Shown here piece by piece: positions 15,327-27,121 of a stretch of DNA of 55,242 nucleotides. A model generated the notes under the pieces. The model was not told the DNA's origin. It ran no database searches and was given only the letters and a program-made list of their open reading frames with translations. The translations under genes were made by a program, and so were the position numbers. Source of the stretch: a virus; the IMG/VR virus record IMGVR_UViG_3300037423_000380. One strand, given 5' to 3'. The stretch's first letter is position 1; every line of letters begins with the position of its first letter.

Positions 15327-15726
15327 TTGCAGACAGGTGAGGGGCTAACTGGTTAACGTGCTTACACTTATACAATCGGTATCAGCGGGTCGAGATACAG
15401 CACCCGATCTGAAACTTTCTGGAACTTCTTCACAGGCCAGCTCGATCGCTCCCAACGGGTACCCGGCCAGCCCTCTGAGACGGCCCCGGAGGGGCCTCTG
15501 ACGGGCGACCTGGCAACCAGGCGACCGGGCTGCCCCCAAGCCCTGCCAGACGCTCACAGCCCCCTCTACGCCGCCGCTGCAAGGCCCCTGGACCGGGCGG
15601 TGGGCGGGCGTACGGGAGCGGTCTGGTCGACCTTGGAACCTGCGCAGGATCTTTGCTGCTATGACCCGGCGGTCCTCCTCGTCCCCGTGAGGGGGTCATA
15701 CCCCCTCCCCCTAGGGTCGGCGCGAG

Positions 15727-15791
15727 GGCACGCGGCTCGCGGCAGGCAGGCACGCGGCTCGCGGCAGGCAGGCACGCGGCACAGCAGGGCA
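15727..15791. repeat. 22-bp tandem repeat GGCACGCGGCTCGCGGCAGGCA, two exact copies plus one diverged copy
   Basis: 15727-15748 and 15749-15770 are identical. The third unit (15771-15791) diverges after 10 nt. Confidence 0.85.
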
Positions 15792-15884
15792 ACGGCCGAC
15801 CCCTGCCCTGCCCTCACACCACGTCACGCACAGCACAGCGAACAGGCAGGGCACTGCCCTCCCCCTGCCGGCCAGGCTTGCTAG

Positions 15885-15903
15885 GTGAGTCACTGTGACT
15901 CAC
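15885..15903. repeat. GTGAGTC-N5-GACTCAC palindrome, copy 1
   Basis: ggtgagtcac-t-gtgactcacc (10-bp arms), 70 bp upstream of promoter P1. Confidence 0.9.
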
Positions 15904-15929
15904 CAGACACCGAGCTAATGCCTGTCTAG

Positions 15930-15948
15930 GTGAGTCACGATGACTCAC
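15930..15948. repeat. GTGAGTC-N5-GACTCAC palindrome, copy 2
   Basis: gtgagtcacgatgactcac, 25 bp upstream of the P1 -35. Like copy 1 it is preceded by CTAG. Confidence 0.9.
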
Positions 15949-15972
15949 TCGAAACTGAATCGAGATTCGGGG

Positions 15973-16001
15973 TTGACATGTCAAAGTGAGAGGCGTAGCG
16001 T
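15973..16001 (+). promoter_or_regulatory. Promoter P1 (TTGACA-17-TAGCGT)
   Basis: -35 at 15973-15978, -10 at 15996-16001. The spacer contains GTCAAAGTGAGAGG. It lies upstream of the first early gene. Confidence 0.65.
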
Positions 16002-16053
16002 TCTCGGTGTCAGGTCGCCACGGGGCGAGACACCACCACCACAGGAGCACACG

Positions 16054-16665
16054 ATGACCACCACCACCACCACCACGATGACCCGCGAGCAGGCCGAGCA
16101 GGTCACGAGCGAGATCCGCGAGCACGGCAAGGCGCTCGTGACCCACCGGACCAAGTTCGCGGCCGCTGTGAAGCGGGCCAAGGATGGGCAGGCGCACGTC
16201 GCGATGGGCCTGCCCTCATGGCCCGAGTACGTCGCGACCGTCTTCGCGAACATGCCCGGACTCGGCAAGGCGGATGCGGAGTACCTGACCGCGTACATGG
16301 CGGGGGAGGGCATGTCCTCCCGTGCTGTGGCTCGCGTGCTCGGTGTGAGCCAGAGCACGGCCGCTCGCATGATCCGGCAGGCGGAGGAGCAGGGCACGGT
16401 GTCGGCCGATCGGAAGGTCGAGGGCACCGATGGCAAGTCTCAGAGCAAGGGCAAGGGCAAGGGTCGCAAGGCAGGCGCGGGCAAGGGCAAGGCCAAGGCC
16501 AAGGATGGAGAGTCGCGTGACGTCAACGTGAAGACGGCCAAGACGGAGGAGCTCCGCTCGCTCGTCGTCTCGATTCTTGAGGAGTTGTCCGACCGGTGGG
16601 CGGAGGGTGACGAGGCTGCGGAGCAGGCCATGCGCGAGATCGCGGAGAGCGCGGTCGTCGCATGA
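16054..16665 (+). CDS. Helix-turn-helix DNA-binding protein with a Lys/Gly-rich basic linker
   Basis: Start at ATG 16054 (SD CAGGAG). HTH-like SSRAVARVLGVSQSTAARMIRQ; KSQSKGKGKGRKAGAGKGKAKAK tract. The N-terminal extension in the track (from 15940) runs through palindrome copy 2 and P1. Confidence 0.7.
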   Translation: MTTTTTTTMTREQAEQVTSEIREHGKALVTHRTKFAAAVKRAKDGQAHVAMGLPSWPEYVATVFANMPGLGKADAEYLTAYMAGEGMSSRAVARVLGVSQSTAARMIRQAEEQGTVSADRKVEGTDGKSQSKGKGKGRKAGAGKGKAKAKDGESRDVNVKTAKTEELRSLVVSILEELSDRWAEGDEAAEQAMREIAESAVVA

Positions 16666-16742
16666 TGGCGCTGCTCGGCGTGCTCCAGGTCATCGCGGTC
16701 CTCGCGGCCATGATCCTCGCCCTCGCCCTCGCGCTCGCGTGA
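16662..16742 (+). CDS. Possible 26-aa hydrophobic peptide (MMALLGVLQVIAVLAAMILALALALA)
   Basis: ATGA overlap with the upstream stop, a single hydrophobic helix, followed by a terminator. It is too short for the ORF track. Confidence 0.35.
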   Translation: MMALLGVLQVIAVLAAMILALALALA

Positions 16743-16751
16743 GGCGCCTCG

Positions 16752-16780
16752 CCCCCGATCCGGCAACGGGTCGGGGGTTT
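16752..16780 (+). terminator. Intrinsic terminator
   Basis: CCCCCGATCCG-gcaa-CGGGTCGGGGG followed by TTT. Confidence 0.7.
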
Positions 16781-16802
16781 CGGCGTGCCCGCGATCCGCC
16801 AG

Positions 16803-16821
16803 GTGAGTCACCCTGACTCAC
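16803..16821. repeat. GTGAGTC-N5-GACTCAC palindrome, copy 3
   Basis: ggtgagtcaccctgactcacc, downstream of the 16752-16780 terminator. Confidence 0.9.
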
Positions 16822-16873
16822 CCACGGGGTACGCGGTACGCGGTACGGAGTACGGGCAAGAGAGGAGTGTGGC

Positions 16874-17143
16874 ATGGTGGAGACGGTTGGGGATCGGCAC
16901 GGCCAGGAGCAGGCCGGCATAGCGTCCGCGGAGGCGCCACCCGCTAGCTCGGATGCGTACGTGTTCGACGTGCTGACGAGTCCGCACGATGCCGTGAAGG
17001 CCGGCGAACTGTGCCGCGTGTGGTCGAGGGTCGTGGTGAGCCGGCTCGCGTACCCGAGCTATGCGGAGGCGTACGACATGGCCGCGTGCTTGGCTGTGGC
17101 CGTGCATGGTGGGATGCCGACCGATGTCCTGCCGCGCTACTGA
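16874..17143 (+). CDS. Hypothetical protein (89 aa)
   Basis: Track ORF; SD AGAGGAG 7 nt upstream of the ATG. Confidence 0.5.
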   Translation: MVETVGDRHGQEQAGIASAEAPPASSDAYVFDVLTSPHDAVKAGELCRVWSRVVVSRLAYPSYAEAYDMAACLAVAVHGGMPTDVLPRY

Positions 17144-17223
17144 CCTCGCCGGCCATGCCAGCGCTCCCGCCATGACGCCCATGACTCGGGTGACTCGGGA
17201 GGCGTGTGACGCGGGGGAGTGCT

Positions 17224-17252
17224 TTGACTTCAGTGTCAAAGTGTGATAGACT
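17224..17252 (+). promoter_or_regulatory. Promoter P2 (TTGACT-17-TAGACT)
   Basis: -35 at 17224-17229, -10 at 17247-17252. Spacer TCAGTGTCAAAGTGTGA. The leader carries AAGTGAGAGACACCACCACAG, then palindrome copy 4. Confidence 0.7.
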
Positions 17253-17285
17253 TGCGTTAGCAAGTGAGAGACACCACCACAGCGA

Positions 17286-17304
17286 GTGAGTCACCCTGAC
17301 TCAC
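17286..17304. repeat. GTGAGTC-N5-GACTCAC palindrome, copy 4
   Basis: cgagtgagtca-ccc-tgactcactcg (11-bp arms) in the P2 leader, 22 nt before ATG 17326. Confidence 0.9.
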
Positions 17305-17325
17305 TCGAAACGTCAGGAGGTCGCC

Positions 17326-17661
17326 ATGAAGTTCACCATCCGCATCGCCCTCGCCCTCATGGGCACGCTGCTCGGAGTCGCCATGCTCGTGACGCCGGCC
17401 CATGCTCGCGCTGTTCAGCTCGGAGAACCAAAGGTGGAGAGGGTCCACCACGACCCCGTGCTCTACGTCGAGCACGTCCAGCGGCGCTGGTACTACGTCG
17501 AATTAGCGGATGGGTCGTCCTGGATGTTCACGCCCTGCCGGCAGGAGGACTCCCAGAACTGCTGGTGGAACGCGCAGACCAGAGGCAACGGCGAGGGTAC
17601 GTCCTTCGTCAACATCCACGGGCATTACCACTACGCGGTCCGGGGGACTGTCATCCGCTGA
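17326..17661 (+). CDS. Secreted small protein, paralogue A (signal peptide, two Cys, NIHGHxHY motif)
   Basis: MKFTIRIALALMGTLLGVAMLVTPAHA|RAVQ... is a signal-peptide-like N-terminus. It is alignable by eye with 23197..23532. Confidence 0.7.
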   Translation: MKFTIRIALALMGTLLGVAMLVTPAHARAVQLGEPKVERVHHDPVLYVEHVQRRWYYVELADGSSWMFTPCRQEDSQNCWWNAQTRGNGEGTSFVNIHGHYHYAVRGTVIR

Positions 17662-17670
17662 CGCGGAGGC

Positions 17671-17710
17671 GGGTGGCCGGCAGGCACCGAGGTTCGAGCC
17701 CTCGGCATCC
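17671..17710 (+). ncRNA. tRNA-like acceptor/T-arm minihelix, copy a
   Basis: GGGTG-gccggcaggca-CCGAGG TTCGAGC CCTCGG-CATCC, followed by ACG. It starts 10 nt after the stop at 17661. Confidence 0.55.
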
Positions 17711-17714
17711 ACGA

Positions 17715-17733
17715 GTGAGTCACGGAGACTCAC
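17715..17733. repeat. GTGAGTC-N5-GACTCAC palindrome, copy 5
   Basis: gtgagtcacggagactcac, immediately 3' of minihelix a. Confidence 0.9.
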
Positions 17734-17753
17734 CTGATCTGAGGAGATTCACC

Positions 17754-18008
17754 ATGCAGACGCAGACCTCGGTTCTGACCGTGCAGACCACCCGCGTCGG
17801 CGCGATGGACGGCAAGCTCGCCAAGGCTTCCGTCATGTACACGTTCGAGGATGGCTCGATCGACACCACGGAGGCCGTATTCCTCCAGCCGACCGGCGAC
17901 GCCGGCCCGGTGTACCTCGCGCTCGGACGGGAGTGGGTGCTGGTCGAGCAGGCGTCCAGGTACGGCGAGCACCTGTCCCACGAGTGGGTCGAGCGGTTCT
18001 TCGGCTGA
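17754..18008 (+). CDS. Hypothetical protein (84 aa)
   Basis: MQTQTSVLTVQTT...; SD GAGGAG 7 nt upstream. The track ORF from 17286 is an off-frame extension. Confidence 0.6.
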   Translation: MQTQTSVLTVQTTRVGAMDGKLAKASVMYTFEDGSIDTTEAVFLQPTGDAGPVYLALGREWVLVEQASRYGEHLSHEWVERFFG

Positions 18009-18023
18009 GTCACACTGACTCAC
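18005..18023. repeat. GTGAGTC-N5-GACTCAC palindrome, copy 6 (first base C)
   Basis: ctgagtcacactgactcac; the TGA stop of 17754..18008 lies inside the left arm. Confidence 0.85.
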
Positions 18024-18047
18024 CTGTCAAAGAGAGAGGTACCGATC

Positions 18048-18425
18048 ATGGAGATCCCCCAGAGCAACTTCACCACCACGTTCGCGGAGTGCCCGGACTG
18101 CGGAGGCCGGCGCTACCTGACCGGCGAGGCGTTCAACCGCCACGGCGAGCACTCGTTCGTGTTCGACTGCGGCAACTGCGGCGAGGACGTCGCGCTGTGG
18201 TCCATCGACATCCAGGTCGAGTGGCACGAGGACTGGACCACTGCCAGTGACGGTGGACGCTGGGCGCTCGCGATCAGGGCGTACGACGACCTGCCGGACG
18301 AGTACGTGCTGCGGAGGCTGCGTGTGCGTGACCTGAGCCGCATCACCACGTGGCAGGAGCTCGTGGCCGTGTACGGCGAGGAGTCCGTGCGCGCTGCGAT
18401 GGCTGGCGCGGGGTACGAGTCATGA
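18048..18425 (+). CDS. Zinc-ribbon protein (125 aa)
   Basis: CPDCGG ... CGNCGE (CxxC x2); SD GAGAGAGG. Confidence 0.6.
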   Translation: MEIPQSNFTTTFAECPDCGGRRYLTGEAFNRHGEHSFVFDCGNCGEDVALWSIDIQVEWHEDWTTASDGGRWALAIRAYDDLPDEYVLRRLRVRDLSRITTWQELVAVYGEESVRAAMAGAGYES

Positions 18426-18649
18426 CCGCCCAGCCAGTGAGTCAGGCCGACTCACCTGTCGTCCACCTGATCGCGCCGGCCGTGAGCATCGTGCCCAACG
18501 AGCTCGGGACTGGCTACGTCATGACCGGCTCGCCGGCAGACCTGCTGGCCCTCGTGGACACGCTCATGGACGCGGTGGACCGCGGCCTGGACGAGACCTT
18601 CGGCACCGTTGCGGAGGCGTACGAGGCATGGAAGGGCGAGGCGTCGTGA
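18422..18649 (+). CDS. Hypothetical protein (75 aa); the start is uncertain
   Basis: ATGA overlap with the upstream stop. If this start is right, palindrome copy 7 is inside codons 6-11. Confidence 0.45.
   Translation: MTAQPVSQADSPVVHLIAPAVSIVPNELGTGYVMTGSPADLLALVDTLMDAVDRGLDETFGTVAEAYEAWKGEAS
18437..18455. repeat. GTGAGTC-N5-GACTCAC palindrome, copy 7
   Basis: gtgagtcaggccgactcac. Confidence 0.9.
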
Positions 18650-18768
18650 GCGGGTATCTGTCGAGCTTCGTGCTCGTGGTCTGGTGCCTCGCGCCGATCA
18701 TCGTGTTCTTCGCGTTCCTCGTGGCGATGGCCCTAGTTGCCGAGCGCCTCATGGGGAATCGAGCTTGA
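18646..18768 (+). CDS. Possible 40-aa membrane peptide
   Basis: GTGA overlap; VSGYLSSFVLVVWCLAPIIVFFAFLVAMALVAERLMGNRA. Its stop overlaps the -35 of P3. Confidence 0.4.
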   Translation: MSGYLSSFVLVVWCLAPIIVFFAFLVAMALVAERLMGNRA

Positions 18769-18794
18769 CCGAGTGTGCAAGTGAGAGGTAGACT
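18765..18794 (+). promoter_or_regulatory. Promoter P3 (TTGACC-18-TAGACT)
   Basis: -35 at 18765-18770, -10 at 18789-18794. Spacer GAGTGTGCAAGTGAGAGG. The leader carries ACACACCACCACAG, then palindrome copy 8. Confidence 0.65.
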
Positions 18795-18821
18795 TGCACC
18801 AGCAACACACCACCACAGCCG

Positions 18822-18840
18822 GTGAGTCAGTGAGACTCAC
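18822..18840. repeat. GTGAGTC-N5-GACTCAC palindrome, copy 8
   Basis: ggtgagtcagtgagactcacc in the P3 leader, just before SD GAGGAG. Confidence 0.9.
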
Positions 18841-18857
18841 CAGAGGAGTTGATCGCA

Positions 18858-19550
18858 GTGAGCACCACCACCACCCGTGACCTGTCCACCACCACCAAGG
18901 TGATCGAGTTCCTAGAGGAGATCCTGGAGCACGTCGACTACGCCTTCGCCTACGGCGAGCCGGGGTACGACGACCCGGCCGGCGAAACGCCGCTGATCGT
19001 GTTCAGCACCTACTGGTGCCGATGCCGCGACTACGAGGACGAGCGGCACCCGGACTCGCCGCTACACCCGATCGACGTTCACTATCCCGCGGAGTTCGAG
19101 CTCCTGGAGGAGCAGGGCGTCAAGTTGGAGTGGTACGACGAGTGGATCATCGACCACGAGACGAGCAAGGCGTACCGCACCGAGGCCGATGGCGCGTTCT
19201 GGATGCCGTCGTACGTGCTGTGGGAGTGCGACCTGCTCACGCCGGACAACTCGATCGAGACGTGGCTCGACTGGATCACCGAGAACCCGCCGTACTACAA
19301 CGAGGTCAAGGCGATCCCGGAGCGCGCCCTGCCCGTGCGGTTCGACACCGTGGTCGGCTGGGAGCAGTGGCCCGACGACACCACCGACTTCCGCAACGAC
19401 TGGTACGGCAACAACGACGACCCGGCCAAGATCCAGGAGGCGATCCGTCGCGAGCACGGCGAGGAGACGTACGTCGTCTTCATCATCCGGGAGTCGCACA
19501 TGTTCGGCGTGCGGTTCGAGGCGTACTACAAGCTCCCTGAGGAGGACTGA
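18858..19550 (+). CDS. Hypothetical acidic protein (about 230 aa)
   Basis: GTG 18858 is 9 nt after GAGGAG; the track uses TTG 18849. No motif recognised. Confidence 0.6.
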   Translation: MSTTTTRDLSTTTKVIEFLEEILEHVDYAFAYGEPGYDDPAGETPLIVFSTYWCRCRDYEDERHPDSPLHPIDVHYPAEFELLEEQGVKLEWYDEWIIDHETSKAYRTEADGAFWMPSYVLWECDLLTPDNSIETWLDWITENPPYYNEVKAIPERALPVRFDTVVGWEQWPDDTTDFRNDWYGNNDDPAKIQEAIRREHGEETYVVFIIRESHMFGVRFEAYYKLPEED

Positions 19551-19553
19551 GCG

Positions 19554-19778
19554 ATGACGGGCCAAGCGCGAAGCGTCGTGTTCCTCCCGATCGTGCAAGT
19601 CATCGAGCGCGAGGACGGCCGGCTGACCGTGGAGTTCGACTGGTTCGACTCGCTCAATGGCGAGGCGACGGACGAGGGGACGCATATCACGATCTACGCA
19701 GAGGAGGTCGCGGAGGCACTGGACGAGTGGCTATGCACCCAACCCAAGTCGTTCGTCATCAACAGGGGGAAGTCATGA
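19554..19778 (+). CDS. Hypothetical protein (74 aa)
   Basis: Track ORF; SD GAGGAGGA. Confidence 0.6.
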   Translation: MTGQARSVVFLPIVQVIEREDGRLTVEFDWFDSLNGEATDEGTHITIYAEEVAEALDEWLCTQPKSFVINRGKS

Positions 19779-20131
19779 GGATCACTCAGTCGCCGGCCTG
19801 CCGGTGCTGCCCGGAGATCGACGTGGAGTTCGACACCGTGTTTGAGGTCACCGAGGAGGGTGCCCTGATCGAGCGGCCGGACCTCTACGCTCCGATGCTC
19901 CTGGAGAACGAGCTCGACTCGGACAAGTGGCGCCTGTGGTCGCACGGCTACACCGGCCAGTACGGCTACCGCGGCCCGATCATGCACAACTCGGAGATCC
20001 TCGCGGGTGGCATCGCGAAGGACCTTCTGGATGAGCCTGGCGTCTACACCGTGCTCGTGTCGCACTACGAGCCGTACGACGAGCTGGACGGCTACGACGT
20101 GGAGGGCTGGGCCGTCGCACAACTCAAGTGA
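19775..20131 (+). CDS. Hypothetical protein (118 aa)
   Basis: ATGA overlap start (M17 of the track ORF). Confidence 0.6.
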   Translation: MRITQSPACRCCPEIDVEFDTVFEVTEEGALIERPDLYAPMLLENELDSDKWRLWSHGYTGQYGYRGPIMHNSEILAGGIAKDLLDEPGVYTVLVSHYEPYDELDGYDVEGWAVAQLK

Positions 20132-20146
20132 GTCAACCTGACTCAC
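20128..20146. repeat. GTGAGTC-N5-GACTCAC palindrome, copy 9
   Basis: gtgagtcaacctgactcac; the stop TGA of 19775..20131 lies inside the left arm. Confidence 0.9.
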
Positions 20147-20147
20147 C

Positions 20148-20187
20148 GGGCGAGTGGAACACATCGAGGTTCGAGTCCTCGACGCCC
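20148..20187 (+). ncRNA. tRNA-like acceptor/T-arm minihelix, copy b
   Basis: GGGCG-agtggaacaca-TCGAGG TTCGAGT CCTCGA-CGCCC, followed by ACG. Confidence 0.55.
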
Positions 20188-20200
20188 ACGACCTATCACC

Positions 20201-20230
20201 TGGACACAGTGTCAGGGTGTGAGGTACGAT
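20201..20230 (+). promoter_or_regulatory. Promoter P4 (TGGACA-18-TACGAT)
   Basis: Spacer CAGTGTCAGGGTGTGAGG. The leader carries ACACCACCACAGGAGG. Confidence 0.5.
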
Positions 20231-20261
20231 GTACACATCAACACCACCACAGGAGGCCGGC

Positions 20262-20354
20262 ATGGCGAAGTACACCACCCGCAAGGTCAGCGAGGACGCA
20301 AGGCGCGAGACGTTGCGGAGGCGTGAGGTTCGGCGTCAGAAGTACGGCAAGTAG
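20262..20354 (+). CDS. Possible 30-aa basic peptide (MAKYTTRKVSEDARRETLRRREVRRQKYGK)
   Basis: SD CAGGAGG 6 nt upstream; first ORF after P4. Confidence 0.4.
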   Translation: MAKYTTRKVSEDARRETLRRREVRRQKYGK

Positions 20355-20377
20355 TAGAAGTGAGAGGAGGCTCCATC

Positions 20378-20764
20378 ATGAACGACGCACAGGAGGCGTT
20401 GGCCCGTTTGCTCCAGCGGGCCGAGAGCACCGTCGCCGGCGAGGGCATGACCTACGAGGACCCGCTGAGCATCGAGGTCAACGGGCGGTACGTGGACATC
20501 TTGTTCACCACCGGGGGACCGCACATCGAGATTCAGCTCGACTTCGGGTACGAGTGCGGCGGCGCGTACTGGTTCGAGCAGGCGCCCGAGCGAGGCCGGC
20601 TCGACTACATGGATTGGGGGAAGCACGAGGTCGCGTACCTCGGCTCGGAGGAGGCGTGGCTGATCCAGTCCGCGATCTTCCGCGACCCGGACGACCTCGA
20701 AGAAGAGGACGAGCTCGACTCCGGGGACGAATTACCACCCTCCCTCCCCGATGGAGGGGAGTGA
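20378..20764 (+). CDS. Hypothetical acidic protein (128 aa)
   Basis: ATG 20378 is 10 nt after AAGTGAGAGGAGG. Confidence 0.6.
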   Translation: MNDAQEALARLLQRAESTVAGEGMTYEDPLSIEVNGRYVDILFTTGGPHIEIQLDFGYECGGAYWFEQAPERGRLDYMDWGKHEVAYLGSEEAWLIQSAIFRDPDDLEEEDELDSGDELPPSLPDGGE

Positions 20765-20805
20765 TCCGGCCGCGGGATGGAGCACCCGAGGCCCACCAGC
20801 AGTAG

Positions 20806-20824
20806 GTGAGTCGGCCTGACTCAC
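20806..20824. repeat. GTGAGTC-N5-GACTCAC palindrome, copy 10
   Basis: aggtgagtcggcctgactcacct (9-bp arms). Confidence 0.9.
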
Positions 20825-20825
20825 C

Positions 20826-20867
20826 TGCCCGACCGGCAGACACCGAGGTTCGAGTCCTCGGCGGGCA
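20826..20867 (+). ncRNA. tRNA-like acceptor/T-arm minihelix, copy c
   Basis: TGCCCG-accggcagaca-CCGAGG TTCGAGT CCTCGG-CGGGCA; it abuts palindrome copy 10. Confidence 0.55.
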
Positions 20868-20903
20868 CGCAGTTCCACACCACCACCACAGAGGAGCACT
20901 GCA

Positions 20904-21737
20904 ATGGACGAGCTGTTCGACGGCGAGGCGTACGACCTTCGCCGCAAGTTCTACGACGACTGCCTGACCAACCTGCTCGGAGAGTACGAGCTGGTCTACG
21001 TCGACTACCGCGATCAACTCACCGACGAGCAGGTCGCCTGGCTGGCCGCGAAGGATTGGGAGTCCCTCGATGCCTCGATGGATGAGTGGCTGGATGACGT
21101 TCGCTACGAGAGCGCGGACTACCACCGCACCGAGGTCATGGACGAGACCGAGGCCGAGTGGGCCGAGGCTCACGGCCACGAGATCGCGGAGGCTGTTCGC
21201 AGCGCCTTCCGGGACACCGACCTGCACGACGAGCTCCGGTACGCGATCGAGGACCGCGACCGCTCCAACCCGCTCCGCGACCTCGCCGGCAACACTCCGC
21301 GAGTCCTCATGCGGCAGGTGCTCGGCGAGGCCCGCCTGACCTCAGAGGACGACATCGAGGACCTGATCCTCGCTGACCTGGGCGTGCCGGACATCGAGCA
21401 CAACCGCGAGGCGATCCGCAACACGCTCCCGGAGTGCGGGGAGTGGGTGCAGGCGATGATCGTCTGCGCCGTCGACCCGAGCGACCTCTACAACACCATG
21501 ACGGCCAAGGAGGTCGAGGTCATCGACCCCTACCTCTACCTCGGCAACCCGTACATGGGCGACGGGTACTGCGAGGAGCAGCTCCACGCGGCAATCCGCC
21601 TCGACCGCGACTCGCTGACCACCGACAAGAGCGCGTTCGGCTACGGCTGGGAAGAGATTGCCGGCGTCTACGTCAGTGCCTACGAGTGCAACCTCATCCG
21701 CGTCGACTGGAACAAGGCGGAGGGGGCGACGGCATGA
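20904..21737 (+). CDS. Hypothetical protein (277 aa)
   Basis: Track ORF; SD GAGGAG. The leader carries ACACCACCACCACAG. Confidence 0.65.
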   Translation: MDELFDGEAYDLRRKFYDDCLTNLLGEYELVYVDYRDQLTDEQVAWLAAKDWESLDASMDEWLDDVRYESADYHRTEVMDETEAEWAEAHGHEIAEAVRSAFRDTDLHDELRYAIEDRDRSNPLRDLAGNTPRVLMRQVLGEARLTSEDDIEDLILADLGVPDIEHNREAIRNTLPECGEWVQAMIVCAVDPSDLYNTMTAKEVEVIDPYLYLGNPYMGDGYCEEQLHAAIRLDRDSLTTDKSAFGYGWEEIAGVYVSAYECNLIRVDWNKAEGATA

Positions 21738-22102
21738 ACGCGAACGACTGGACCGTGCGCCGGGTCGACCTCGGCTACGGCGGCGAGGAGGGCTCGTGGC
21801 TCTGCCAGTACCAGCCCGCCCTTCGCTGGAACGGGTGGATCGCCTTCCCCTACTTCGACGCCTACACCGTGGTCGACATCCTCGACAACTTCGTCAACCG
21901 TCCGGGCTCTGACCCGTACCACTGGTACGACTACCGCTTCGAGGACGACGGGACGCTCGTCATGGAGGATCGGCAGTTCCGCACCGAGTACCCCGAGGAC
22001 TTCGAGCCCGAGCGCATCGAGCCGGACAAGGACGGCCTCTACTCTCTCGGGGCCTACGGCTGGGCGTGGGACGAGATCAGCGACGAGGAGGGCTCGGCGT
22101 GA
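21734..22102 (+). CDS. Hypothetical protein (122 aa)
   Basis: ATGA overlap start; MNANDWTVRRVDLGYGGEEG... Confidence 0.6.
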   Translation: MNANDWTVRRVDLGYGGEEGSWLCQYQPALRWNGWIAFPYFDAYTVVDILDNFVNRPGSDPYHWYDYRFEDDGTLVMEDRQFRTEYPEDFEPERIEPDKDGLYSLGAYGWAWDEISDEEGSA

Positions 22103-22353
22103 TGACGCGAACCCGACTCGACCTGACTCCGTACCAGACGCCCACCGGCCCGAGCACTGCGGAGTTCTCCGGGGAGCACCGGGGGATGCACGTCGAGCTC
22201 TGGGAGCGCGGCTTCATGTGGGCCTGGGCGATCTTCGCCCTGGACCAGTTCACCCCCGTCGACCAGGGTGCAAGCCTGCTGCGTTCCGACGCCGAGCACA
22301 ACGCCGCCCAGCACATCGACCAGTACCTAGCAAGGAAGGAGCGGGAGTCATGA
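22102..22353 (+). CDS. Hypothetical protein (83 aa)
   Basis: 1-nt TGATG overlap start. Confidence 0.55.
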   Translation: MTRTRLDLTPYQTPTGPSTAEFSGEHRGMHVELWERGFMWAWAIFALDQFTPVDQGASLLRSDAEHNAAQHIDQYLARKERES

Positions 22354-22535
22354 GCACTTGTCTTGGGTGTGGGCACGAGATCGAGTTCGTGCCCGACGTT
22401 GATGAGGACGGCGCCCCGGTTCCCGAGGGCTACGGCATGTGGGTGCGGGTCGACACCGGCTGGGACTGCTGCGAGCCCGGTCCGGGCGACGAAGACCGCT
22501 ACCACGAGCCGACTGCCAGAGAGGAGGAGTCATGA
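22350..22535 (+). CDS. Small Cys-containing protein (61 aa)
   Basis: ATGA overlap; MSTCLGCGHEIEF...WDCCEPG. Confidence 0.55.
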   Translation: MSTCLGCGHEIEFVPDVDEDGAPVPEGYGMWVRVDTGWDCCEPGPGDEDRYHEPTAREEES

Positions 22536-22870
22536 AGCCTGAGAGGAGACTCGTGCTGGACTTCATCCAGCAGAACCCGCTTGCCTGTGAGGACCTCACG
22601 GTCTCCGAGATCGAGACGTTCGCCGAGCACTACGCCGGAGGTCTCGTCGTCCTCGCGGGCTACCCGATGCGGGAGAACTTCTACGTCAAGCTGCACGACT
22701 CGTGGAGCGACACGACGGACATCGTGGTCCACGAGTACCACCTAGAGGACCCGGACCAGCAGACCGAGCGGTACTTCACCGACAGCCGGCGAGCGTTCGA
22801 GTACTTCATGCACGCCATCACCGGCCAGGGCCTCGACGGCACCGGCCCGAGTACCGAGGGGGAGTCGTGA
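22532..22870 (+). CDS. Hypothetical protein (112 aa)
   Basis: ATGA overlap start. Confidence 0.6.
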   Translation: MKPERRLVLDFIQQNPLACEDLTVSEIETFAEHYAGGLVVLAGYPMRENFYVKLHDSWSDTTDIVVHEYHLEDPDQQTERYFTDSRRAFEYFMHAITGQGLDGTGPSTEGES

Positions 22871-23004
22871 TCGAGGAGCTTGAGACCGCGAAGAGGAACG
22901 TCCGCTGGCTCCTCGACCACCCTGACGGCCTCGTGGACATGCACGGCCTTGAGTATTGGGCCGGCCGGGTAGTCACTCTCCGCGCCAAGATCCGAGAGGT
23001 CTGA
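22867..23004 (+). CDS. Hypothetical protein (45 aa)
   Basis: GTGA overlap start; VIEELETAKRNVRWLLDHPDG... Confidence 0.4.
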   Translation: MIEELETAKRNVRWLLDHPDGLVDMHGLEYWAGRVVTLRAKIREV

Positions 23005-23007
23005 GCC

Positions 23008-23193
23008 ATGACGCAGGTCGACCGCGAGCAGGTTACGAGGGCGCTCGACGCCTTCTGGACCGAGATCGCCAAGGAGTTCCCGAAAGTAAAGACAGGCGAC
23101 CTCGACACCGTTAGTGTCCTGCGACTGGAGGACGCGGCGATGTACGCGGTGCAGGGCTGGCTCGACCTCAACACCACCACCGAGGAGGACTGA
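23008..23193 (+). CDS. Hypothetical protein (61 aa)
   Basis: Track ORF; SD GAGAGG. Confidence 0.55.
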   Translation: MTQVDREQVTRALDAFWTEIAKEFPKVKTGDLDTVSVLRLEDAAMYAVQGWLDLNTTTEED

Positions 23194-23196
23194 ACC

Positions 23197-23532
23197 ATGA
23201 ACCGCATCTTCACCAGCATCGCCCTGGCGCTGATCGCCCTTGCCGCGGTAACGGGGCGGGCCGACGCCAAGGCCGTCCAGATCACCGGCCCGACCACCGA
23301 GGTCATGCACCACAACCGCGTGGTGCGCGTCGTCTACCTCGACGGCGTGCACTACCGCATCAGGCTCGCGGACCACTCTCGGTGGCGGCTGACGATGTGT
23401 GCGACCGAGACTGAGCGCAACTGCCTGTGGGCGCCGAACCCCCACTTCGAGGACAACCGCAGGTTCGCCAACATCCACGGACACCGGCACTACTTCGCCA
23501 AGGGCACGTACGTGCCGGTGTTCGTCTCCTAG
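23197..23532 (+). CDS. Secreted small protein, paralogue B
   Basis: MNRIFTSIALALIALAAVTGRADA|KAVQ...; it shares AVQ, HH, LAD.S.W, C..(7-8)..NC.W and NIHGH.HY with 17326..17661. Confidence 0.7.
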   Translation: MNRIFTSIALALIALAAVTGRADAKAVQITGPTTEVMHHNRVVRVVYLDGVHYRIRLADHSRWRLTMCATETERNCLWAPNPHFEDNRRFANIHGHRHYFAKGTYVPVFVS

Positions 23533-23554
23533 ACCCGCACGTGGTGGTGTGGTG

Positions 23555-23573
23555 GTGAGTCAACCCGACTCAC
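23555..23573. repeat. GTGAGTC-N5-GACTCAC palindrome, copy 11
   Basis: ggtgagtcaacccgactcacc. Confidence 0.9.
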
Positions 23574-23577
23574 CGGA

Positions 23578-23617
23578 GGGAGGCCGGCAGGCCCCGAGGT
23601 TCGAGCCCTCGGCTCCC
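23578..23617 (+). ncRNA. tRNA-like acceptor/T-arm minihelix, copy d
   Basis: GGGAG-gccggcaggcc-CCGAGG TTCGAGC CCTCGG-CTCCC. Confidence 0.55.
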
Positions 23618-23653
23618 GCCATGCGTGTCATGACAGCGTGGCGCGCTCTCAGT

Positions 23654-23683
23654 TTGACAAAGTGTCGAAGTGTGATGTAGACT
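23654..23683 (+). promoter_or_regulatory. Promoter P5 (TTGACA-18-TAGACT)
   Basis: Spacer AAGTGTCGAAGTGTGATG. The post -10 sequence TGCGTCAGCAAGT is nearly identical to that of P2 (TGCGTTAGCAAGT). Confidence 0.7.
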
Positions 23684-23717
23684 TGCGTCAGCAAGTTCAC
23701 CCCGAGGAGAGGAAGCC

Positions 23718-23942
23718 ATGAAGCGGACGTACCAGATCCCGTTGACCGGACAGGTCGCCGTGGACGCCGAAGCAGGGACGGTTGACGTGAGCGTCGATCT
23801 CGTGGACCTCCCGCTCGACCTGTCCTACGACTACGAGGTCGACTACAGCAGGGCCGAGGTCGACGCGGACGGCAAGCTCATCCACGAGCTCCAGTCGAAC
23901 TCACTAGAGCACCACTACCTTCAGCACCACATGTCGAAGTGA
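23718..23942 (+). CDS. Hypothetical acidic protein (74 aa)
   Basis: Track ORF; SD GAGGAGAGGAAG. Confidence 0.6.
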   Translation: MKRTYQIPLTGQVAVDAEAGTVDVSVDLVDLPLDLSYDYEVDYSRAEVDADGKLIHELQSNSLEHHYLQHHMSK

Positions 23943-23955
23943 GAGGCGGGAGATC

Positions 23956-24168
23956 ATGACCAAGAAGCAGTTCGAGGCCATCGCGAAGATCCTCAACCGC
24001 TACACCCTCGCGGACCCCGCTCCCGGCACGTTCGATGAGGGCTACGCCGACGCCTCGTTCGGCATCGCCGTCGAGCTCGCCGACTACTTCGAGACGACCA
24101 ACCCCCTGTTCGACCGAGAGCGCTTCCTCTTGGCCTGCGGTATCAAAGTGAGAGGATGGGAACGATGA
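23956..24168 (+). CDS. Hypothetical protein (70 aa)
   Basis: ATG is 9 nt after AAGTGAGAGG. Confidence 0.6.
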   Translation: MTKKQFEAIAKILNRYTLADPAPGTFDEGYADASFGIAVELADYFETTNPLFDRERFLLACGIKVRGWER

Positions 24169-25586
24169 CCACCATCATCGAGGGGATCAGCCTGTTCAGT
24201 GGCCCCGGAGGTTCCATGACCGGCCTCAAGATGGCCGGCGTCAAGAACGGCATCGGAGTGGAGTGGGACGAAGCCGCGGTCACCACCGCTCGGGCCGCGG
24301 GCCACCGGGTCCACCACGGTGACGTGCGGGACCTCGAACCGATGGACTTCTACATCGAGTCGTACGACGGCATCGCCCACCTTCCGGGCACCGACGTGCA
24401 GTTGCTTCTCCAGGCGAGCCCGCCCTGCCAGGGCCTCAGCATGGCCGGCAAGGGCAAGGGCCGCGAGGACCTCGACCTGCTGTTCACCGCGCTCGACGGC
24501 CTGATCGGTGAGGCCGAGGACGGCGTGTCCACGAGCACGCTGCGCGAGATCTTCGATGACCTCAACGCCATGCTCATCGCGGACTGCTCCGACGAGCGGT
24601 CCCCCCTCACCTTCGAGGTCGTCCGCTGGTTCCTCGACCTCAACCCCGACCACGTGATGCTGGAGCAGGTCCCCGCGGCCCTCCCGATCTGGGAGCGGAT
24701 CGCAGACCTCCTGCGAGCCCTCGGCTATGCCGTGTGGGTCGACAACGTGCAAGCCGAGCAGTTCGGCGTCCCGCAGACCCGCAAGCGAGCCATGCTCATC
24801 GCCACCCGGCACGCCACCGAGATGCCTGCCCCGGTGCCCACGCACTCCAAGTTCCACAACCGGACTCCCGAGCGGCTGGATGCCGGCGTGCTGCCGTGGG
24901 TCAGCATGGCCGAGGCGCTCGGCTGGGGCGTGACTGAGATGGTCGGCTTTCCGCGCCGCTACGACGGCCAGGGCGAGGCCATCGAGATCGACGGCGAGCT
25001 CTACCGCGAGCGGGACCTCCGGGAAGCCAGCCTCCCCTCGTTCGTCGTGACCGAGAAGGCTCGGTCGTGGAACCGCTACCTCGACCGCGAGGGCAACGAG
25101 GTCACCCACATGGGCGACGTGCGGAGTTCCCACGGCTGCGTCCGTCCGATCGACGCGCCGGCTCCGACGCTCACCGCGAGCATGGACAACGGCAACTTCC
25201 GCTGGATCGACCGCGAGGCCGTTATCGCGGAGGTCGAGCCCCGCGTCAACAACCAGTCCGGCACGGACTTCGACCTGAGCTGGCCGATGGATCGCCCCGC
25301 TCCCGTGGTCGCCGGCCGCGACATCATCACGATGCCGGGTGCGAACGCCAACCGCTTCAACGGGTCAACCAAGAGCCGCAACGACGGCATCCGCGTCACC
25401 ATCGAGGAGGCAGGCATCCTCCAGTCCTTCCCGGTGGACTACCCGTGGTACGGCACAAAGACCAAGCAGTTCCAGCAGGTCGGCAATGCCGTCCCTCCCG
25501 TGCTTCAGCACGCCCTCACGTCTCATCTTCTGGCCGTGTGTGCAAGTGAGAGGTCGGAGGGGATTTCCGAGGCCGAGGTCGGATGA
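24165..25586 (+). CDS. DNA (cytosine-5)-methyltransferase
   Basis: Motifs: I LFSGPGG, IV SPPCQG, VIII QTRKR, X GNAVPP. ATG 24165 makes an ATGA overlap. Confidence 0.9.
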   Translation: MTTIIEGISLFSGPGGSMTGLKMAGVKNGIGVEWDEAAVTTARAAGHRVHHGDVRDLEPMDFYIESYDGIAHLPGTDVQLLLQASPPCQGLSMAGKGKGREDLDLLFTALDGLIGEAEDGVSTSTLREIFDDLNAMLIADCSDERSPLTFEVVRWFLDLNPDHVMLEQVPAALPIWERIADLLRALGYAVWVDNVQAEQFGVPQTRKRAMLIATRHATEMPAPVPTHSKFHNRTPERLDAGVLPWVSMAEALGWGVTEMVGFPRRYDGQGEAIEIDGELYRERDLREASLPSFVVTEKARSWNRYLDREGNEVTHMGDVRSSHGCVRPIDAPAPTLTASMDNGNFRWIDREAVIAEVEPRVNNQSGTDFDLSWPMDRPAPVVAGRDIITMPGANANRFNGSTKSRNDGIRVTIEEAGILQSFPVDYPWYGTKTKQFQQVGNAVPPVLQHALTSHLLAVCASERSEGISEAEVG

Positions 25587-25708
25587 TGGATTGGGCGCGA
25601 CGGATCATGGAGGCCGACTTCGGGTGCCTCTACTGCGACGACACGTTCCCCACGTACGACGAGGTTGACGAGCACATCAATGCCAACCACGCCGGACTGG
25701 AGCTCTGA
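25583..25708 (+). CDS. 41-aa C2H2-type zinc-finger peptide
   Basis: MMDWARRIMEADFGCLYCDDTFPTYDEVDEHINANHAGLEL (CxxC ... HxxxxH). It overlaps the methyltransferase stop and the next start. Confidence 0.5.
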   Translation: MMDWARRIMEADFGCLYCDDTFPTYDEVDEHINANHAGLEL

Positions 25709-26076
25709 TGACACAGGGGACGGTGAACGGCGGCGATCGAGGCAACACGAGGGATCGCCGCCGTCGTCGGGAGTGGCTGGTCGAGAACTTCCGGGCCGAC
25801 GTGGACGCCTCGGTGGCTCGGGGGACAGACGGCATCCCGTTCGATGTCCAGCTCTACAACGAGCGCCTGACTGGCTGCGGCTACCGCCGTGAGCCGGCGT
25901 GCCGGTGCTACCGCTGCGGGACGCTCCTGACCGTCGACACGGTGTCGCCCGACCGGATCATCCCCGGCTGCAAGGGCGGGACCTACCGCCGCAACAACAT
26001 CAGGCCGGCGTGCCTGCGATGCCAGAGCGTCACCGGCAACGAGATCAAGAGAGCGATCCGCAAGAAGTCCAAGTGA
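25708..26076 (+). CDS. HNH-like (beta-beta-alpha-metal) endonuclease, non-canonical
   Basis: CRCYRCG ... SPDRIIPGCKGGTYRRNNIRPACLRCQ has HNH-family spacing and two CxxC pairs, but D-R stands where D-H is usual. Confidence 0.5.
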   Translation: MTQGTVNGGDRGNTRDRRRRREWLVENFRADVDASVARGTDGIPFDVQLYNERLTGCGYRREPACRCYRCGTLLTVDTVSPDRIIPGCKGGTYRRNNIRPACLRCQSVTGNEIKRAIRKKSK

Positions 26077-26091
26077 GTCCCGATGACTCAC
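26073..26091. repeat. GTGAGTC-N5-GACTCAC palindrome, copy 12
   Basis: agtgagtcccgatgactcact; the stop TGA of 25708..26076 lies inside the left arm. Confidence 0.9.
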
Positions 26092-26140
26092 TCGGCACAA
26101 CTGAATAGGCGTGAGGGAAGGGGAAGCCCAAGAGCGCCGA

Positions 26141-26193
26141 GGGATGGCCCCGTGGGGGGACGCCGGCACGAGGTTCGAGCCCTCGCCATCCCA
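26141..26193 (+). ncRNA. tRNA-like element, copy e (7-bp acceptor stem plus T arm, 21-nt insert)
   Basis: GGGATGG-ccccgtggggggacgccggca-CGAGG TTCGAGC CCTCG-CCATCCC-A. The acceptor 3' strand is contiguous with the T stem, as in a real tRNA; there is no anticodon arm. Confidence 0.55.
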
Positions 26194-26240
26194 CGCAAAC
26201 CCGCAGCACACACCACCAGCCAAGGAGGCGCAACGGACAC

Positions 26241-26690
26241 ATGCGAAACTCGGAACCAAGGCTTCTTGGAACCCTGGCTCGGCCCATCAGTGAAGTCGAG
26301 CTCGAAGAGGAAGAGACCAACGGACTGGACGGGGTTGTCCGGTGGGACGACCTGGAGCGGGGCCTCGACCGCGGCGCCTTCGCCTTCAGGACGGACGTGA
26401 AGAGGGAAGTGGGCCGGCAGTTCGCCGAGGCCGAGCGCCCCTTCTACGACAGCATCTACCGCGAGGTACTCGACGGGCTGTTCCCCGAGTACCGGGCGAT
26501 GTACGACGCCCTTCCGATGGGCACCAGCAGCAGCGTCTTCGTCGGGAAGCTCAACGCCGAGACGGTGCGGGAGATCCGCACTCGCCATGCGGCCGGCGAG
26601 AAGGGCTCGCACCTGGCCGTGGAGTTCGGCGTGCGCCCCAACACGATCTCGGACCTGCTCAACAACAAGACCTGGAGGAACGTCGCGTGA
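26241..26690 (+). CDS. DNA-binding protein with a C-terminal HTH
   Basis: KLNAETVREIRTRHAAGEKGSHLAVEFGVRPNTISDLLNNKTWRNV is an HTH module of the kind common in phage regulators and homing-nuclease DNA-binding domains. Confidence 0.45.
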   Translation: MRNSEPRLLGTLARPISEVELEEEETNGLDGVVRWDDLERGLDRGAFAFRTDVKREVGRQFAEAERPFYDSIYREVLDGLFPEYRAMYDALPMGTSSSVFVGKLNAETVREIRTRHAAGEKGSHLAVEFGVRPNTISDLLNNKTWRNVA

Positions 26691-27049
26691 CCGTCGCCAG
26701 CTACGAGGAGACGCGAGTCGTCAGCGAGACCGGGGGAGAGAAGGGGCAGAAGGCGAGCCAGCTCGGCACCATCGACCCGATCGCCCTCCTGCATCTCGGA
26801 GAGGTCAGCGGCTTCGGCGCGCAGAAGTACGAGGCGTTCAACTACCTCAAGGGCTACGACTGGCGGCTGACCGTGGACGCTGCTCTGCGACACCTGCTGG
26901 CCTTCTGGGCGGGAGAGGACCGCGACCCCGAGTCCGGCCTCCTGCACCCGGCCCACTTCGCCTGGCATGGCCTAGCGCTCACGTCCTTCGCCCTGCGGGG
27001 CGTCGGAGAGGACACGAGGTTTCGGGGAGCGGTGCTACTGAACAAGTGA
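26687..27049 (+). CDS. DUF5664-type dATP/dGTP pyrophosphohydrolase-like protein (MazZ-like)
   Basis: GTGA overlap start. GGEKGQK...IDPIALLHLGEVSGFGAQKYEAFNYLKG..W...AALRHLLAFWAGEDRDPESGLLHPAH matches my recollection of the DUF5664 pattern. This was not verified by search. Confidence 0.5.
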   Translation: MTVASYEETRVVSETGGEKGQKASQLGTIDPIALLHLGEVSGFGAQKYEAFNYLKGYDWRLTVDAALRHLLAFWAGEDRDPESGLLHPAHFAWHGLALTSFALRGVGEDTRFRGAVLLNK

Positions 27050-27056
27050 GTGTGTT

Positions 27057-27072
27057 AGTGTGAGGTCACACT
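27057..27072. promoter_or_regulatory. 16-bp perfect palindrome AGTGTGA-GG-TCACACT (operator candidate, copy B)
   Basis: It lies in the 72-bp gap before the 601-aa gene and is preceded by TGTTAGTGT (TGn-TAnnnT-like). It is 15/16 identical to 45763-45778. Confidence 0.55.
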
Positions 27073-27121
27073 GACGCGAACCTGAGACTTCGAGATCATC
27101 CAGAGAGAGGGGATCACCCAT

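Follow-up and report, generated by a model that had tools for sequence, protein, structure and literature searches.

A tRNA-like element repeated in the gaps of a plus-strand operon

We studied IMG/VR virus record IMGVR_UViG_3300037423_000380, a DNA stretch of 55,242 nucleotides (nt) that we call the window, and a short tRNA-like element that occurs in it five times (copies a to e). Judged from its gene content, which includes a large terminase, a portal, a tape measure, tail proteins, a ribonucleotide reductase, exonucleases and a large serine integrase, the window is the complete genome of a temperate siphophage of the Streptomyces type. On its plus strand, a block of genes between ~15.9 and 32.1 kb consists predominantly of small genes of unknown function, together with a C5 methyltransferase, an HNH protein and RtcB. 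The gaps within this block house all five copies of the element, which thereby split the operon into six blocks. In the following rows, the bit scores are those of a covariance model (R1) described below.

17671-17712, plus strand: copy a; stem GGGTG/CATCC (third pair G-U), linker GCCGGCAGGCA, T stem CCGAGG/CCTCGG, loop TTCGAGC, A73 at 17711 and C74 at 17712; 62.9 bits
20148-20189, plus strand: copy b; stem GGGCG/CGCCC, linker AGTGGAACACA, T stem TCGAGG/CCTCGA, loop TTCGAGT, then A-C; 60.5 bits
20827-20868, plus strand: copy c; stem GCCCG/CGGGC, linker ACCGGCAGACA, T stem CCGAGG/CCTCGG, loop TTCGAGT, then A-C; 63.9 bits
23578-23619, plus strand: copy d; stem GGGAG/CTCCC, linker GCCGGCAGGCC, T stem CCGAGG/CCTCGG, loop TTCGAGC, then G73-C74; 61.6 bits
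26141-26194, plus strand: copy e (divergent); 7-base-pair (bp) stem GGGATGG/CCATCCC, an extra small hairpin CCCCGTGGGG, then GGACGCCGGCA, a 5-bp T stem CGAGG/CCTCG, loop TTCGAGC, then A-C

An initial annotation of the window had described five sense-strand intergenic copies, and the sequences read at those sites, all in gaps between plus-strand open reading frames (ORFs), bear this out. The core CGAGG-TTCGAG(C/T)-CCTCG that it assigned to each copy was recovered as an exact 17-nt sequence, CGAGGTTCGAGYCCTCG, at 17688, 20165, 20844, 23595 and 26169, always on the plus strand and never in 100 shuffles. The outer stems agree as well, with one G-U in copy a and with a T20826 in copy c that is able to pair with A20867, giving (T)GCCCG/CGGGC(A). 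The same holds for the ACG that follows four copies (copy d is instead followed by GCC), for the T loop TTCGAGC, shared by copies a, d and e with the tRNA-Asn at 2105-2178 on the minus strand, and for the abutment of the helices, where the 3' strands of the T stem and the acceptor-like stem are contiguous. Some stem lengths and coordinates were corrected: the T stem has 6 bp in copies a to d and 5 bp only in copy e, and the core of copy c begins at 20827.

We built the covariance model R1 from a seed of the four window copies a to d and ten copies of Streptomyces phage Caliburn. Searched on either strand of the 55 kb, R1 returned exactly these five sites. Copies a to d scored 60 to 64 bits, the next best match in the window reached 15.8 bits and the true tRNA-Asn 13.6 bits. 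Copy e, which lacks the N'-R-C-A part of the linker described below, scored 24.5 bits (E 0.0017) with the model built without it, and on this evidence it is a divergent member of the family. A spacing-specific control pattern, CGGCA-N3-GGTTCGAGYCC (the family loop with a 3-nt spacing), matched almost exclusively unstructured coding sequence and yielded no close relatives of copy e. In this G+C-rich DNA, the single-sequence folding energies of the elements were not significant (z between -0.3 and -1.2); the evidence for a fold lies in covariation.

Covariation defines the fold of the element

The consensus of the family comprises a 5-bp stem, an 11-nt linker of the form A-N-Y-GGCA-N'-R-C-A, a 6-bp T stem, the loop TTCGAGY and the terminal R73-C74. 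As read from these sequences, the element is a 43-nt RNA shaped like the upper half of a tRNA. The 14 seed copies, drawn from two unrelated phages, have all of their cells paired (100%), and both sides change in 7 of the 11 pairs. When the analysis was extended to 122 distinct IMG/VR copies, 99.2% of cells were paired, and double changes occurred in 10 of the 11 pairs, with up to six pair types. The covariation score of these 122 copies was 0.765, compared with 0.17 after shuffling and at most 0.16 when the partner strand was slid. The only pair that does not covary, G:C in 121 of 122 cells and unpaired in the other, is equivalent to G53:C61 of tRNA. Moreover, the excess of G-U cells (18) over A-C cells (5) is consistent with the sense RNA being the strand that folds. 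The covariation, now seen across more than 200 homologues, proves a selected fold, which the initial annotation had deduced from compensatory changes among the five window copies.

Information content was highest in the 11-nt linker. The 122-copy alignment was fitted to R1, and the constraints on the linker, which lie outside this model, came from mutual information. Linker bases 2 and 8 form a pair (CG 59, AU 32, GC 24, UA 4; paired in 120 of 121 copies), and linker base 9 pairs with nt 60, the last nucleotide of the T loop, using all four Watson-Crick types. Linker C10 and loop G59 hardly vary, apart from a swap from C:G to G:C now and then. In 39 copies that fall outside all of the search patterns, 503 of 507 cells of 13 pairs were paired, and linker G4 and loop U55 changed together to A and G in 7 of 7 cases. 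The standard window copies a to d comply with both tertiary rules (2:8 and 9:nt 60) in addition to their R1 scores, and fall within the family as the model defines it; for instance, copy a has the linker pair C:G and a linker G opposite loop C60, and copy b has G:C and a linker A opposite loop T60.

From these covarying contacts, the linker is a surrogate of the D loop that docks on the T loop, i.e. a mimic of the D-loop/T-loop "elbow" of tRNA, and the C/T polymorphism of the loop is one half of a base pair, that of nt 60 with linker base 9. This changes two points of the initial annotation. Its C and T loop variants exist, but they co-vary with the linker purine and do not vary freely; similarly, its acceptor/T-arm fold stands, but the picture of a bare minihelix with a spacer does not, as the 11-nt linker docks on the T loop.

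Distribution in phages and prophages of several phyla

With more than 200 copies found by sequence searches, the element is a family present in phages and prophages of several bacterial phyla, and a single genome often holds ten copies or more. A megablast search of window positions 17000-27000 against ~50,700 phage genomes had the ~45-nt element as its sole match, in 73 Streptomyces phages. Short-query searches retrieved ~113 Streptomyces phage records (R4-like, cluster BD), 25 mycobacteriophage records (e.g., Konstantine, Predator and Send513), a few Gordonia phages and six phages of Riemerella (Bacteroidota). Among the phage matches listed, the element was unannotated in nearly all cases. 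Phage Caliburn has 10 copies, located in early-arm gaps; Konstantine has 5, and Riemerella phage CRP19 has 2 within one gap, which was confirmed directly. All copies in these three phages are sense to the annotated genes.

We then scanned IMG/VR with sequence patterns followed by R1, which gave 126 hits in 54 of 100 loci, with up to 12 hits per locus. All the hits of a locus lie on one strand, the G+C content of the contigs spans 0.30-0.71 and only one of the 126 hits overlaps a tRNA called by ARAGORN. A scan of bacterial genomes, one per species, produced pattern matches in Actinomycetota, Bacteroidota, Planctomycetota, Acidobacteriota, Gemmatimonadota, Proteobacteria, Chloroflexota, Verrucomicrobiota and others. 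R1 returned 78 hits in 80 of these genome loci plus the 20 remaining IMG/VR loci; some of them are partial and may be real tRNAs. None of the 80 listed matches of the species scan belonged to Bacillota, and 5,426 Escherichia coli genomes held 0 copies. This host range is a sample and not a census, and the apparent absences from Bacillota and E. coli are to be read in the same way. The patterns used to gather loci fix GGCA and the T loop, so the conservation of those letters is partly a matter of ascertainment; the 39 pattern-independent copies carry the same letters.

Wherever the context was checked, the neighbours were phage genes, and the bacterial copies in question lie in prophages of Actinomycetota and Planctomycetota. 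Terminase and portal genes are found beside copies in a Corynebacterium and a Planctomycetota genome. The Corynebacterium prophage copy, which adjoins these genes and precedes a coiled-coil ORF, limits the earlier description of an early-operon element: sense copies in a polycistronic block of mostly small non-structural genes are what the window has, but confinement to early regions does not hold.

A different arrangement occurs in 11 Bacteroidota loci (L011, L046, L127, L147 and seven more), where a gene for a Mu-type transposase of ~680 residues (phrog_310) lies 3' of the element. Here the element stands between this gene and a conserved inverted repeat that resembles a promoter or operator, ATCACTATA...TATAGTGAT. 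In these transposable phages, the element is thus part of the leader that precedes the first early gene.

We found no description of the element family in the literature searched, and Rfam 15 had no match to it, so the family appears to be missing from Rfam; "undescribed" is used here with respect to that literature. A survey of 10,006 candidate viral structured RNAs may include the motif without a name (PMC10690425). Matches to the loop sequence in the VarioGold paper turned out to be att sites. The suggestion that the repeat was unreported therefore holds within these sources, but it is not peculiar to the window phage.

Conserved ends and position relative to genes

The two ends of the element are conserved in a manner reminiscent of tRNA. 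G1:C72 forms the first pair in 111 of 122 copies; A (81%) and G (16%) predominate at position 73, and 183 of 185 copies have C at position 74. Position 75, on the other hand, is C in only 10 of 185 (p = 4e-15 vs. flank composition). At position -1 the frequencies are 61% A, 24% C and 6% U.

The location with respect to the neighbouring genes is also stereotyped. When upstream ORFs of at least 80 codons are considered, their stop codon terminates 6-9 nt 5' of G1 in 85 of 204 copies, and closer stops are very rare (one at 4 nt and one at 5 nt). Downstream, a companion hairpin follows almost immediately, and 117 of 132 structured cases have its first paired base at nt 75-78; the folding energy of the 32 nt located 3' of C74 was -8.8 kcal/mol compared with -5.5 kcal/mol for shuffles (p = 1e-21). 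From the end of the model, the median distance to the next start codon is 34 nt (interquartile range 29-44). The GenBank annotation of Konstantine gives similar figures: the distance from stop to G1 is 7-9 nt in 3 of 5 copies, and that from the model end to the start codon is 39-47 nt in four. The proteins encoded downstream are unrelated to each other, forming 130 clusters among 194, and a Pfam search of flanking genes revealed no partner protein in common.

In the window, the upstream stop codon TGA at 17659-17661 terminates 9 nt ahead of G1 of copy a; copy b is located between a stop codon at 20129-20131 and a promoter-like site; and the start codon of the ORF that follows copy c is at 20904. 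The features next to copies a, b and d are:

17715-17733, plus strand: hairpin GTGAGTC-ACGGA-GACTCAC, beginning at nt 77 after copy a and one of the 12 operator-like repeats described below
20201-20230, plus strand: promoter-like site TGGACA / 18-nt spacer / TACGAT, 12 nt 3' of copy b, in the order gene, element, promoter
23654-23683, plus strand: promoter-like site TTGACA / 18-nt spacer / TAGACT, 35 nt 3' of copy d

The hairpin at 17715-17733 occupies the position of the companion hairpin seen in most members of the family. We detected no intrinsic terminators on the plus strand between 15500 and 32500; the elements run into A-C and the second hairpin, with no T runs. A promoter or terminator consensus did not overlap any of the window elements.

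Comparison with tRNAs and with known tRNA-like systems

We compared the elements with tRNAs and other RNAs. ARAGORN called only the tRNA-Asn at 2105-2178 (minus strand) in the window; its mitochondrial and tmRNA (transfer-messenger RNA) modes returned nothing for 17500-26400, and its relaxed mode gave 26 calls on both strands that amount to noise. Rfam at gathering thresholds identified only the tRNA-Asn as well, and its tRNA model (RF00005) did not match the elements even at E = 10. These negative results at the elements agree with the earlier view that they are not decoding tRNAs. The T arm is nonetheless of the tRNA type, with a loop TTCGAGY corresponding to T54-T55-C56-R57-A58 and the closing G:C pair in 121 of 122 copies. 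The coaxial helix has 5+6 = 11 bp in the family instead of the 12 bp (7+5) of tRNA, and 7+5 is found only in copy e. The tRNA-Asn itself, which has the anticodon GTT, encodes no CCA (G73 is followed by CGC) and in this resembles the elements, with C at position 74 and a non-C at 75.

The initial annotation had proposed that full-length tRNA genes at homologous positions in relatives would mark the elements as decayed remnants. The closest relative found through a neighbouring protein (60% identity) is the IMG/VR contig L242, which has no tRNA at the syntenic site; it does not carry a standard copy there either, having a longer tRNA-like variant:

L242 5775-5841: tRNA-like variant of 67 nt that combines the T arm of the family with a hairpin (7-bp stem, 7-nt loop); a further hairpin and a promoter-like site lie 3' of it

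ARAGORN and Rfam both rejected this variant as a tRNA, and its sequence shows plasticity of the element rather than decay.

In permissive Rfam scans of the window, Konstantine and the Riemerella phage, the mascRNA-menRNA family (RF01684) alone gave a weak signal, with 23.6 bits for copy e, 19.7 for copy b and 14-16 for Konstantine and the Riemerella phage, all far below its gathering score of 42.5. Like the element, mascRNA and menRNA are small tRNA-like RNAs within a longer transcript, and they are cut from MALAT1 and NEAT1 by RNase P and RNase Z; unlike it, mascRNA is a vertebrate RNA and forms a cloverleaf with an anticodon-like arm. The closest functional analogues are the t-elements of plant mitochondria and mitochondrial tRNA punctuation, where RNase P and RNase Z read tRNA-like acceptor/T-arm structures, or whole tRNAs, that lie between coding regions in polycistronic RNAs and thereby create the 3' and 5' ends of mRNAs (PMC1920247). 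The phage elements share with t-elements an acceptor/T-arm fold located between cistrons, being intergenic and sense to the genes, and a tRNA shape that does not depend on identity. The two are not homologous, however: the phage element belongs to bacterial viruses, its cleavage is hypothetical, and it differs in the 11-nt D-loop-like linker, the pseudoknot to nt 59/60, the 11-bp helix and the companion hairpin.

Structurally, the nearest analogue is the tRNA-like domain of tmRNA, which also joins an acceptor stem and a T arm to a stemless D loop that docks on the T loop. That domain is, in contrast, built from the two ends of a long RNA, has a CCA end and the alanine identity pair G3:U70, and functions together with SmpB; the G-U of copy a is not a feature of the family. 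The 3' tRNA-like structures of plant RNA viruses (turnip yellow mosaic virus type) resemble the element in being viral acceptor/T-arm mimics with a pseudoknot. They are recognised by the tRNA enzymes of the host, which for the phage element is a hypothesis, and they are single, 3'-terminal, CC(A)-ending and aminoacylatable, whereas the phage elements are internal, multi-copy and avoid C75.

Operators, promoters and other features of the operon

The early-operon gaps also contain DNA repeats that had to be distinguished from the element. Stoperators, described in R4-like Streptomyces phages and cluster A mycobacteriophages, are likewise short repeats in the same early-operon gaps, oriented with transcription; they are asymmetric double-stranded DNA sites for a repressor with a conserved sequence, whereas the element conserves pairing. 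The published motifs of R4, Zemlya and phiHau3 are TGTGCAAGTGTNGC, GTGTGCAACCTTCGTA and AGTGTGTTAGNCNGAC (PMC10276819, Table S3). An R4-like stoperator or operator was ruled out for the element, as these 13-16-bp motifs differ from it and it keeps complementarity rather than sequence. In Caliburn, a stoperator-like motif (GTGTG.TACCTTCGCA) adjoins several elements and is separate from them. A phiC31-type early promoter was also discarded, given that the promoter-like sites lie elsewhere and the element conserves pairing, and so was an intrinsic terminator, as the operon has neither a terminator-like site on its plus strand in 15500-32500 nor a T run at the elements.

Within the window, a 19-bp inverted repeat, GTGAGTC-N5-GACTCAC(C), was found 12 times against 0.66 expected, in nearly every gap of the plus-strand operon (15885, 15930, 16803, 17286, 17715, 18005, 18437, 18822, 20128, 20806, 23555 and 26073). 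Two of these copies lie on either side of the start of the first gene (15940). Because the repeat keeps its half-sites but not the spacer between them, it looks like a repressor operator or stoperator-type site and not like an RNA hairpin; its sequence differs from that of the element. Four sigma-70-like promoters were identified on the plus strand, at 17224-17252, 18765-18794, 20201-20230 and 23654-23683, and all four have an internal box, GTGT..AAGTG.GAGG, between the hexamers. A 15-mer related to this box, TGTCAAAGTGAGAGG, occurs five times (15976, 18022, 23929, 28977 and 30366) and is similar to the published R4 stoperator TGTGCAAGTGTNGC, a likeness by which the window phage may own two repression repeat systems.

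A 30-codon ORF with a good ribosome-binding site, MAKYTTRKVSEDARRETLRRREVRRQKYGK (20262-20354, plus strand), lies directly past the promoter located 3' of copy b and has an arginine-rich stretch reminiscent of the RNA-binding motif of lambda N-type antiterminators. Several genes of the operon have CA-rich leaders (CACCACCACCAC...) immediately 5' of the Shine-Dalgarno sequence, at 16031-16071, 18835-18875, 20239-20279, 20880-20903 and 26210-26240, and a similar one is found in L242 at 5920-5945. The ORF at 27122-28927 contains three diverged direct repeats of ~59 nt between 27810 and 28318, spaced 210-240 nt apart, which indicates that its 601-residue product, a protein of unknown function, is made of repeated modules of ~70-80 residues. 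The last block of the operon, in which no element was detected, encodes a full-length RtcB RNA ligase (30752-31984, plus strand; Pfam E = 1.4e-116). Its presence suggests the repair of tRNA or RNA breaks inflicted by the host or by defence systems. We found no link between RtcB and the elements.

A possible role in the punctuation of phage mRNA

The stems of the element vary freely and the generic features of a tRNA shape are fixed, which points to a host enzyme that recognises tRNA shape, and not identity, as the most likely reader; likewise, the spread over phyla of very different G+C content and next to unrelated phage proteins argues for a universal host reader. RNase P occurs universally and recognises the elbow together with the acceptor end. 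For RNase Z, the acceptor/T arm is the recognised part and CCA is a known anti-determinant that blocks the enzyme, and the avoidance of C75 beside an invariant C74 fits a substrate of RNase Z that still offers C74. The only weak resemblance in Rfam, that to mascRNA, is to a tRNA mimic processed by RNase P and RNase Z. We propose tentatively, with a probability of about 0.42, that host RNase P and/or RNase Z punctuate the polycistronic phage mRNA by reading the element.

According to this model, each copy would be transcribed within the plus-strand polycistronic mRNA, as its sense position in operons suggests. The 5-bp acceptor-like helix (G1:C72, A73, C74) stacks on the 6-bp T stem with its canonical T loop, and the 11-nt linker replaces the D and anticodon arms, with its GG contacting loop positions 55/56, its R-C pairing with 60/59 and its bases 2 and 8 pairing with each other. 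A cut by RNase P 5' of G1 would create a base-paired end with a 5'-monophosphate; if RNase Z, or another endonuclease, cut after A73/C74, the upstream message would end in a tRNA-like 3' cap a few bases past its stop codon and the downstream message would begin with a hairpin. The long transcript would thus be divided into units, uncoupling the stability and expression of neighbouring gene blocks. We infer the transcription of the elements, the identity of the reading enzyme and the cleavage itself.

Several observations weigh against this proposal. The coaxial helix has 11 bp and that of tRNA 12 bp, and U amounts to only 6% at position -1, where A reaches 61%; E. coli RNase P prefers U(-1). 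A lone RNase P cut would leave the 3' end of the upstream mRNA unprotected, 6-9 nt beyond the stop codon, and a hairpin that begins 1-4 nt after C74 would offer very little single strand to a 3' endonuclease. The Bacteroidota Mu-like copies lie between the promoter-like region and the transposase gene, with no upstream cistron seen. The pairing of loop positions 59/60 with the linker is not a feature of tRNA, so the elbow may differ from the one that the enzymes read. Lastly, RNA ends and cleavage at the copies are hypothetical.

The arrangement of the element around genes could be explained without any cut. It may be a structural module that, as a roadblock or insulator in cis, shields the transcript from exonucleases and from the 5'-end-dependent scanning of RNase E/J, or else a ribosome or translation element for the downstream gene, which starts ~40 nt further on. 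The tight spacing of the downstream start codon given above, the almost constant companion hairpin, the location in the 5' leader of the first gene in the Bacteroidota Mu-like elements and the fact that the element begins, at 6-9 nt, just beyond the footprint expected for a ribosome terminating upstream all speak for such a module. Yet a plain stable hairpin would protect equally, leaving the T loop, G1:C72, A73-C74, the avoidance of C75 and the D-loop-like GG unexplained, and copies b and d lie upstream of promoters, so that transcripts begun there would lack the element; we consider this explanation unlikely, though it deserves attention. The tRNA-like features would be accounted for if excised 43-46-nt tRNA mimics acted in trans as decoys, titrating a host factor that binds a generic tRNA shape, be it a defence nuclease or toxin directed at the acceptor/T arm, a tRNA-modifying or CCA-adding enzyme, or RNase P itself. 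Such a role, in line with the high copy number (up to 10-12 per locus), the conservation of shape independently of identity and an RtcB ligase in the same operon suggesting that tRNA damage matters to the window phage, seems to us improbable: a pure trans role has no need for the stereotyped stop/start position or the cis hairpin, the anticodon arm that known anticodon nucleases usually target is absent, and some carriers have only one or two detected copies.

Sustained transcription offers another account, in which the binding target of the element is a termination factor or the transcribing RNA polymerase, in the manner of HK022 put sites or as an anti-Rho signal. The sense-only copies lie within long operons that lack recognisable intrinsic terminators, those of the Bacteroidota Mu-like elements stand directly 3' of a promoter-like region, and both Actinomycetota and Bacteroidota depend strongly on Rho. 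Known put and nut sites, though, are not arranged as ten or more gene-junction copies per operon, and G1:C72, A73, C74 and the lack of C75 would again be left unexplained, which makes this account quite improbable. We give even less credence to a novel self-cleaving ribozyme, or an aptamer for a small ligand, in which the T-loop motif is just a building block. A length of ~45 nt, a pseudoknot and many invariant unpaired bases would suit it, and small ribozymes do occur in multiple copies in phage genomes; but no Rfam ribozyme or riboswitch matched even at E = 10, the invariant bases are precisely those of the tRNA T loop and tRNA ends, and riboswitches are not normally found upstream of dozens of unrelated genes. 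Finally, the elements could be decayed tRNA remnants, a functionless selfish miniature repeat or a site acting at the DNA level (operator, promoter or integrase target), as might be thought from a T loop identical to that of a real tRNA of the same genome, the longer tRNA-like sequence at the syntenic place in L242 and the gaps shared with operator-like repeats. Decay is incompatible with 99% pairing, compensatory changes, a fixed 11-nt linker and a tertiary covariation that crosses phyla; stems that differ between the copies of one genome are not the products of recent transposition; and DNA-binding proteins conserve sequence, not complementarity. Furthermore, the published stoperators of R4, Zemlya and phiHau3 differ from the element (PMC10276819), and no promoter or terminator consensus overlaps it. 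Covariation in the aligned sequences thus largely refutes these last possibilities, which it essentially excludes.

Punctuation by RNase P or RNase Z is the reading that we favour, and the wider claim built on it is put forward as provisional: that a new RNA family would let phages hijack the nucleases of tRNA maturation at gene junctions and produce structured mRNA ends, as the first counterpart of "tRNA punctuation" in bacterial viruses. Abundant free mini-tRNA-like RNAs would possibly be formed, and the linker/T-loop pseudoknot would represent a new minimal solution for an elbow.

Significance

Whatever its function, the element is a clean case in which the three-dimensional contacts of an RNA can be read from covariation alone, namely two helices, one lone pair, a 2-bp pseudoknot and a G/U-to-A/G switch. 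Cultured carriers are available on easy hosts, such as the mycobacteriophages Konstantine and Send513 on Mycobacterium smegmatis and the R4-like phages on Streptomyces. If RNase P or RNase Z reads the element, phages of very different hosts would have in common a portable, host-independent means of cutting and stabilising messages. This would also account for hundreds of 100-nt gaps left unannotated in the actinophage genomes sequenced, and synthetic operons for Streptomyces, mycobacteria and Bacteroidota would gain a compact natural part for insulation or processing.

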